From IMG/VR virus record IMGVR_UViG_2681813228_000025: DNA of 19,575 nt; one strand, 5' to 3'. This document shows, piece after piece, positions 841 to 1,068 of the stretch. Positions within the stretch are counted from its first letter, which is position 1; each line of letters begins with the position of its first letter. Origin of the DNA: a virus (lineage: Duplodnaviria > Heunggongvirae > Uroviricota > Caudoviricetes). Both the position numbers and the translations under genes were made by a program. A model generated the notes under the pieces. That model worked only from the letters and a program-made list of their open reading frames with translations. It was not told the DNA's origin and made no database searches.

Positions 841-1068
841 TTCACCTGTTCACCTTTTGATATTTTATCTTTTAATTCATAATGTTAAGGGGTGAACAGT
901 TTCACAAAAACTATTCACCAACTGTTCACCACTGTTCACCCTTGAAGCTCAATAAACAATCAAAAAGGTGAACAGTGAATAGTTTGGTGAACAGTTCATA
1001 AATAACTATTCACCCTATAATATACTGATATAAAAGATATTTATGACAGGGTGAACAGTGGTGAACAG
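841..1068. repeat. Iteron cluster / origin of replication (TGTTCACC octamers in both orientations with AT-rich spacer)
   Basis: TGTTCACC or variant at 847-854, 911-919, 922-930, 932-940, 1006-1014; inverse GGTGAACA at 891-899, 967-975, 976-983, 986-994, 1050-1058, 1060-1068. AT-rich stretch 1000-1048. TGTTCACC is the type I iteron bound by P4 alpha protein at ori/crr. Confidence 0.8.

Follow-up and report, generated by a model that had tools for sequence, protein, structure and literature searches.

We report on an array of short repeats, and on the gene next to it, in a stretch of 19,575 nucleotides of viral DNA (Caudoviricetes; IMG/VR record IMGVR_UViG_2681813228_000025), called here the window, that is, the whole stretch that was analysed. 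The nearest repeat lies 14 bp from the stop codon of pri-rep, an open reading frame (ORF) of the minus strand whose product, Pri-Rep, is listed in RefSeq as a 'DNA primase family protein'. The window is 100% identical to Escherichia coli O121 chromosomes, and the RefSeq annotation of NZ_CP028110 has at the identical locus an island of about 10.2 kb with the gene order integrase, helix-turn-helix (HTH) regulator, BRO-N, Icd-like, DUF4222, pri-rep, array, 81-aa ORF, single-stranded DNA-binding protein (SSB) and prohead protease/capsid fusion. An int gene, an AlpA-type HTH, unidirectional genes, pri-rep, ssb and capsid-morphogenesis genes in about 10 kb, without tail or lysis genes, correspond to the organisation of a phage-inducible chromosomal island (PICI). 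Judged from this gene content, and from the comparison of the RefSeq locus with EcCICFT073, EcCIIHE3034 and EcCI224, the element that hosts the array is a PICI of the EcCICFT073 organisation. Neither the psu-delta-sid operon nor epsilon appeared in the RefSeq annotation or in the Pfam and PHROG scans of the window, no dedicated profile search having been made beyond it; as these annotated P4 hijacking genes are absent, we do not consider the element a P4-like satellite.

The octamer TGTTCACC/GGTGAACA has eight exact matches in the window, all inside 847-1067, while shuffled sequences preserving dinucleotide composition contain 0.72 on average (sd 0.84) and none of 200 shuffles reached eight. 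Two further sites differ from the octamer by one nucleotide and two by two nucleotides; both of the latter stand where diverged relatives, and the homologous unit of P4 ori, have an iteron. In total 12 iterons in both orientations are found in 229 bp (Table 1), and no other TGTTCACC site exists in the rest of the 10-kb island or in its flanks. The initial annotation had proposed at least eleven copies in both orientations between 841 and 1068, a count that holds and limits that are right within 2 bp. It had also described the repeats as split by one AT-rich stretch: AT-rich DNA is indeed present (the array has 33% GC against 44.5% in the window), but as two spacers, plus a milder one between them. 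Concerning other signals, no DnaA box (TTATNCACA, at most one mismatch) was found in 728-2956, so that the array does not correspond to the origin of a classical iteron plasmid, dependent on Rep and DnaA. Scans of 500-1300 for promoter and terminator consensus sequences detected nothing, and an Rfam scan gave no RNA family in or near the array.

A repeat finder revealed long imperfect inverted repeats across the region. When 955-1085 and the reverse complement of 825-950 were aligned to the P4 ori core (NC_001609, 9296-9430), both halves of the array turned out to be copies of one unit, in which three iterons of the same sense are followed by one opposed iteron, an AT-rich spacer of about 35 bp and two more iterons. 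The two units are arranged head-to-head, with the triple-iteron ends toward the centre, and in both of them the order, the orientation and the start offsets of the iterons agree with the P4 ori core within 3 bp. The P4 record labels TGTTCACC 'ori type 1 repeat' in ori as well as in crr, hence the octamer had been correctly recognized beforehand as the type I iteron of P4. On the strength of this alignment, the unit of the PICI origin and the core of P4 ori are homologues in which each iteron has its counterpart. The gene-proximal spacer, whose length is kept in P4 ori, vB_KppS-Ant, EcCIRM13514 and EcCICFT073, is the best candidate unwinding element by composition and predicted stability, and the gene-distal spacer is a second candidate. 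In strain 07_3636 (L007, about 2590-2610) an insertion of 10 bp gives the distal unit a thirteenth iteron, CTGTTCACC, so that iteron number can evidently change by slippage.

In P4 the iterons are divided between ori and crr, and the array could be considered a crr-like enhancer or initiator-loading site only, with replication starting at a separate origin elsewhere in the island. Its position directly 3' of the initiator gene is that of crr in P4, and the beginning of the 120-bp crr repeat can be aligned with the outer part of the distal unit as well. A common core is found in all units, also in those of crr: a single iteron opposes a pair of iterons, with a spacer between them and a start-to-start distance of 43 bp. 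The gene-proximal half is nevertheless collinear with the P4 ori core, AT-rich spacer included. Local alignment scores are higher with ori (69 and 59) than with crr (51-53 and 22-29); for the inverted distal half they are 69 and 51-53, respectively. The island and its flanks, moreover, offer no other TGTTCACC sites, and in EcCICFT073 the equivalent 3' region is the sole cis element needed together with rep (PMC6092414). We therefore regard a role as crr alone as very improbable. An assignment of the distal half as a crr homologue was also tried and dropped: the orientation of its inner iterons agrees with ori and not with crr which, together with the scores, makes it an inverted ori unit that has only its outer part in common with crr.

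The adjacent protein, correctly placed and sized by the initial annotation, resembles the initiator of P4. Residues 148-598 of Pri-Rep align in BLASTP with residues 320-771 of P4 alpha at 51% identity. The domain search that had been suggested for it returned D5_N, DUF5906/superfamily 3 (SF3) helicase and Pox_D5, and residues 500-596 matched the structure of the origin-binding domain of P4 alpha (PDB 1KA8) with an E value of 1.8e-24. In P4 alpha the winged-helix domain binds the origin repeats, and unwinding and priming follow (PMC4234260).

The N-terminal domain is of a different kind. The primase of P4 alpha has been described as of the bacterial Toprim type; Zn_Ribbon_Prim and Toprim_3, both found by Pfam in the N-terminus of alpha, were not found by Pfam in Pri-Rep, and the first ~147 residues show no sequence relation to the alpha Zn-ribbon/Toprim primase (profile-profile probability 0.3%). 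The N-terminus, which the initial annotation could not classify, is classifiable by fold as Toprim-like. The fold model drew on a homologue search with the N-terminal 148 aa, whose hits were for the most part fragmentary or frameshifted, and the figures obtained for the domain were 7.3 with Aquifex DnaG, 7.1 with B. subtilis DnaG, 6.6 with T7 primase, 6.4 with Twinkle and 6.0 with E. coli DnaG; the label Toprim-like denotes this similarity of fold only. The conserved Toprim Glu and DxD, which a DnaG-type primase carries, were not found in the domain. An active Toprim was considered, because MAFFT put E55 of Pri-Rep under the Toprim Glu of alpha, and was rejected because this position varies among homologues. 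From the model the domain is probably Toprim-like and non-catalytic, and the annotation 'primase' is probably wrong for the N-terminal domain of these Pri-Rep proteins. The invariant motif of the domain is TEVIIFAGSDAW. In other E. coli PICI alleles the domain is 60-94% identical and is joined to RepA/AAA_25-type helicases (EcCI042, O111, D i14) or to DUF927-like helicases; it is therefore a portable module.

Table 1. Coordinates of the array, of its parts and of the neighbouring genes in the window
Feature	Position	Strand	Remarks
Whole iteron array, predicted PICI origin	839..1067	.	12 TGTTCACC-type sites, two inverted units
Exact TGTTCACC/GGTGAACA sites	847+, 891-, 923+, 933+, 967-, 986-, 1050-, 1060-
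One-mismatch iterons	912+, 1007+		TATTCACC
Two-mismatch iteron	839-846		CCTTCACC
Two-mismatch iteron	975-982		GTGAATAG
Gene-distal unit, inverted	839..940	-	minus-strand iterons 933-940, 923-930, 912-919; opposed 891-898; AT spacer; 847-854, 839-846
Gene-proximal unit	967..1067	+	minus-sense iterons 967, 975 (degenerate), 986; opposed 1007-1014 (TATTCACC); AT spacer; pair 1050/1060
Start offsets, P4 ori			0/10/21/43/86/96
Start offsets, inverted distal unit			0/10/21/42/86/94
Start offsets, gene-proximal unit			0/7/19/40/83/93
Distal AT-rich spacer	855..890	.	17% GC; 9th least stable 30-mer of the window
Central spacer at the dyad axis, between the units	941..966	.	27% GC
Proximal AT-rich spacer	1015..1049	.	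20% GC; 2nd least stable 30-mer of the window
Pri-Rep initiator gene	1082..2908	-	608 aa; WP_000833609.1
C-terminal winged-helix origin-binding domain (aa 500-596)	1121..1411	-	Pfam Pox_D5 (aa 499-594); homologue of P4 alpha 1KA8
D5_N (aa 165-294) and SF3 helicase/ATPase core (aa 328-452)	1553..2416	-	DUF5906, PPV_E1_C-like; Walker A GPGGSGKS; 7OLA match
N-terminal ~136-aa domain (aa 1-136)	2501..2908	-	Toprim-like alpha/beta fold (probable); phrog_2850
Island-encoded SSB	130..552	-	replication module
81-aa gene right after the predicted origin	549..794	-	conserved; phrog_1231; same place in EcCICFT073-type PICIs
DUF4222 gene, overlapping the pri-rep start	2905..3204	-	conserved upstream neighbour in E. 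coli PICIs
PICI tyrosine integrase	5461..6699	-	located at the end of the island that is closest to the split terminase gene of the prophage

The array is widespread, being found with blastn in 686 of 5426 complete E. coli genomes. In the catalogue of Fillol-Salom et al. 2018 (PMC6092414, Table S1) two PICIs carry it, with 98.6% identity in the array and 98.2% in Pri-Rep for EcCI224, and 80% and 88%, respectively, for EcCIRM13514; vB_KppS-Ant, a particle-forming element of 16.5 kb, has the same array behind an initiator of 583 aa. When six diverged copies were compared, whose flanks are 43-92% identical to the window, all 12 positions remained iteron-like, and invariant columns amounted to 76% in the iterons, 43% in the spacers and 39% in the flanks.

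Going farther, a repeated 8-mer lies within 350 bp after the initiator gene in each of 80 loci from other Enterobacterales, where four iteron types occur: GGTGAACA, GGTAGACA, GGTGGAGA and G[CT]GGACAG. The iteron type cannot be told from how similar the binding domains are overall, since the users of GGTGAACA include P4, with a binding domain 48% identical to that of Pri-Rep, and alpha-like proteins of Xenorhabdus (57-64%), while domains that are 62-71% identical go with other iterons. The alpha-like genes of Xenorhabdus and Photorhabdus, of about 813 aa, all have P4-type iterons downstream. The only fully discriminating columns of the binding domain are positions 579-580: all 62 distinct domains of the P4 type have x-G there (H, Q, Y or L, then G), and the 19 others have G-R or G-N; Pri-Rep has H579-G580, within the segment that discriminates iteron specificity. 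By winged-helix topology these two residues should lie in the beta-hairpin wing, because they follow the helix after the conserved Tyr-rich helix alpha2. A homologue from Escherichia ruysiae is 92% identical in the helicase and 70% in the binding domain and has GGTAGACA iterons, therefore binding domain and origin appear to have been exchanged together, as in a module swap. These comparisons support the view that Pri-Rep and the repeats are a cognate pair, in which sister alleles keep the architecture and the iteron and the two wing residues change together. The initial suggestion of a variant initiator using P4-type iterons is in agreement with this covariation of iteron and binding domain across relatives; what had been missed are the PICI identity, the dyad of two P4-ori-like units and the Toprim-like N-terminal fold.

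Gram-negative PICIs have their origin directly after the 3' end of the initiator gene, invariably with an AT-rich region between two sets of iterons, and a pri-rep-ori fragment of EcCICFT073 kept a temperature-sensitive plasmid at the restrictive temperature in a manner dependent on rep and ori (PMC6092414). The array agrees with this description, both in its 14-bp distance past the stop codon and in its AT-rich spacers of 17-20% GC. Considering the sequence evidence as a whole, 839-1067 very probably serves a PICI of the EcCICFT073 organisation as its origin of vegetative replication, and is fired by the Pri-Rep that the island itself encodes immediately upstream on the minus strand.

A mode of action for such an origin may be proposed on the basis of the assay published for EcCICFT073 and of the homology with alpha of P4. 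Pri-Rep would be made after induction by a helper phage and excision of the island, and its C-terminal winged-helix domain would bind the TGTTCACC iterons; as neighbouring iterons are 8-11 bp apart, about one helical turn, the bound protomers would sit on roughly one face of the DNA. The SF3 helicase domains may then form hexamers on both inverted units, each of which would clamp its ~35-bp AT-rich spacer between the opposed iteron and the iteron pair, and the spacers would melt. The dyad layout would allow two helicases to load in opposite directions and replication to be bidirectional. The island SSB would coat the single strands, with synthesis by the host polymerase. Priming of the P4 type is improbable, since the N-terminal domain is merely Toprim-like and has no catalytic acidic residues; it may recruit the host DnaG, or prime in some other way. 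The ori and crr of P4 would thus be replaced by two adjacent inverted ori-like units.

Several points weigh against this interpretation. For the TGTTCACC allele we infer the binding, the melting and the initiation site alike, and in the assay on EcCICFT073 the deletion of ori merely 'significantly reduced' colony numbers (PMC6092414). P4 requires both ori and crr, and the sufficiency of two adjacent units is assumed. The placement of residues 579-580 in the wing follows from the order of winged-helix elements, the single-sequence model being poor (pLDDT 38). Finally, the copy in the window is part of a prophage in decay and might never undergo induction.

This last point leads to an alternative, that the array is an origin by descent which is functionally dead here, a relic in an immobile island within a defective prophage. 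The terminase gene that the island interrupts belongs to a prophage with pseudogenes and insertion sequence (IS) insertions, and identical copies occur only in genomes of the O121 lineage. On the other hand the ORFs of pri-rep, ssb, int and their neighbours are intact, none of the 12 iteron positions has been lost and the array is nearly identical (98.6%) to that of EcCI224, hence we find a dead relic hard to credit. As for the prophage itself, it is Qin-like and lambdoid, and the PICI lies within its gene for the large terminase, gpA (window 6700-7854 and, outside the window, L002 14858-15976). The gpA ORF is cleanly split: its N-terminal fragment ends ...RRSRIASF and its C-terminal fragment, 10.2 kb off, begins FWMEGPAAAY, with the short similar sequence CATCCA[A]GAA at both island junctions. 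Such an insertion, a site absent from the att sites of Table S1 in PMC6092414, would inactivate packaging by the resident prophage, which carries pseudogenes and IS insertions also elsewhere.

A different proposal is that the repeats are mainly regulatory or serve copy control, either as an operator or roadblock for orf81-ssb or as handcuffing/incompatibility sites that titrate Pri-Rep. Plasmid iterons commonly double as copy-control sites. The array, moreover, is within a unidirectional string of genes, between pri-rep and orf81/ssb, and as it has no recognisable promoter or terminator, a bound protein would obstruct the path of transcription. However, its architecture and spacing are those of the proven P4 ori core and of the tested PICI ori, and the length of the AT-rich spacer is kept across very divergent relatives, which is not required of a pure operator. 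A control role would in any case add to the origin function and not exclude it; taken as the main function, it deserves very little weight.

Other features of the region were noted. The part of the island outside the window (L002 16883-18772) has the ClpP-like prohead protease/major capsid fusion gene, and the resident prophage's gene with the same product name is a pseudogene with an internal stop; EcCI224 also has a protease/capsid fusion gene, plus a gene for DUF1441 (Nu1-like). Two full-length matches to the cspA thermoregulator (RF01766; 112 and 159 bits) lie on the minus strand of the window at 10844-11230 and 13707-14130, upstream of prophage cold-shock genes that RefSeq calls cspI and cspB. 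An ORF of 300 aa with a GTG start (3747-4649, minus strand) has no Pfam or PHROG match and is probably not a gene; RefSeq places there small plus-strand genes (YlcI/YnfO family and a hypothetical) and the Icd-like gene on the minus strand.

As to what is new, the array itself is ordinary: it serves as origin in a very common E. coli PICI, and origins of its class were described, with a functional test, in 2018. The feature must be regarded as already known, since all the testable pri-rep/ori features of Gram-negative PICIs were found together with near identity to catalogued members. A full-text literature search with the octamer returned primer lists only and nothing relevant. Previously the organisation was considered unique to PICIs, with Pri-Rep alleles 'different in sequence' from alpha (PMC6092414), and satellite primase-replicases were suggested to be analogues rather than homologues (PMC10085698). 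The homology of PICI and P4 origins, the two-residue code and the non-primase reading were not found stated in the literature examined, a search that did not cover the iteron list in Fig. 2a of PMC6092414. What novelty is left lies in the homology with P4 ori, in the layout as a single dyad and in the primase-like domain, which is probably inactive. The four iteron types and the two adjacent winged-helix residues also provide a natural specificity series for studying and re-engineering origin recognition and replicon compatibility.

A more speculative view, which we hold only tentatively and consider rather unlikely, is that PICIs of the TGTTCACC allele and P4-like satellites use one origin-recognition code made of iteron, geometry and wing residues, that Pri-Rep is a 'primase-less alpha' whose degenerate domain recruits the host primase, and that the dyad is a fused ori and crr. 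Because iteron, ori-unit geometry and discriminating wing residues are in common, alpha and Pri-Rep could then each activate or titrate the origin of the other in an E. coli cell that contains both satellites, and cross-activation or incompatibility between satellite families would follow.

Concerning other known systems, there is a likeness to eukaryotic viruses. In SV40, with large T, and in papillomaviruses, with E1, inverted initiator sites surround AT-rich DNA, and an SF3 helicase with an origin-binding domain forms two opposed hexamers. The array shares with these origins the inverted sites around AT-rich DNA, by analogy only, as they are eukaryotic-viral and their origin-binding fold is another one; a double hexamer was not reported for alpha-type proteins in the literature examined. 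The origins of Staphylococcus aureus pathogenicity islands (SaPIs), as described in PMC6092414, are alike in lying 3' of the initiator gene, in iterons that flank an AT-rich melting region and in an island-encoded helicase-type Rep. They differ in their unrelated iterons, in Pri and Rep usually being separate and in their Gram-positive lineage, a distinction drawn from description and not from sequence comparison.

EcCICFT073 is much closer. Its gene order is the same (int, HTH, icd-like, DUF4222, pri-rep, ori, small ORF, ssb, capsid genes) and its origin follows pri-rep directly on the 3' side and has an AT-rich region between its iteron sets. EcCICFT073, EcCIIHE3034 and EcCIATCC25922 agree with the array in unit geometry (0/9/20/40/88/97) and differ in the iteron, which is GGTAGACA; the functional assay was made on the GGTAGACA allele and not on the TGTTCACC allele. 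Pri-Rep of EcCICFT073 is 49% identical overall; by domain the values are 69% (N-terminal), 46% (helicase) and 32% (binding domain). In these three islands the distal spacer is not AT-rich: it is a GC-rich palindrome, TTACTGGCCACCATGCCAGTAA... (L004 7180-7250), which suggests that only the gene-proximal unit melts in the EcCICFT073 allele.

The P4 replicon and the array have in common the 8-bp type I iteron TGTTCACC, the ori-core design (three iterons, one opposed, an AT spacer of about 35 bp, two iterons), an initiator made of D5_N, SF3 helicase and winged-helix origin-binding domain (51% identical), and an iteron cluster directly 3' of the initiator gene, without DnaA boxes. The two differ in that P4 carries the genes psu, sid, delta and epsilon, absent from the PICI annotation, and that P4 alpha has 777 aa with a Zn-ribbon and Toprim primase of the DnaG type, against the 608 aa of Pri-Rep with a Toprim-like domain of about 135 aa instead. 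The main difference is one of layout: in P4, ori and crr are 4.5 kb apart and crr consists of two direct 120-bp repeats, while the array is not bipartite and forms a single dyad of 229 bp, made of two adjacent inverted ori-like units.
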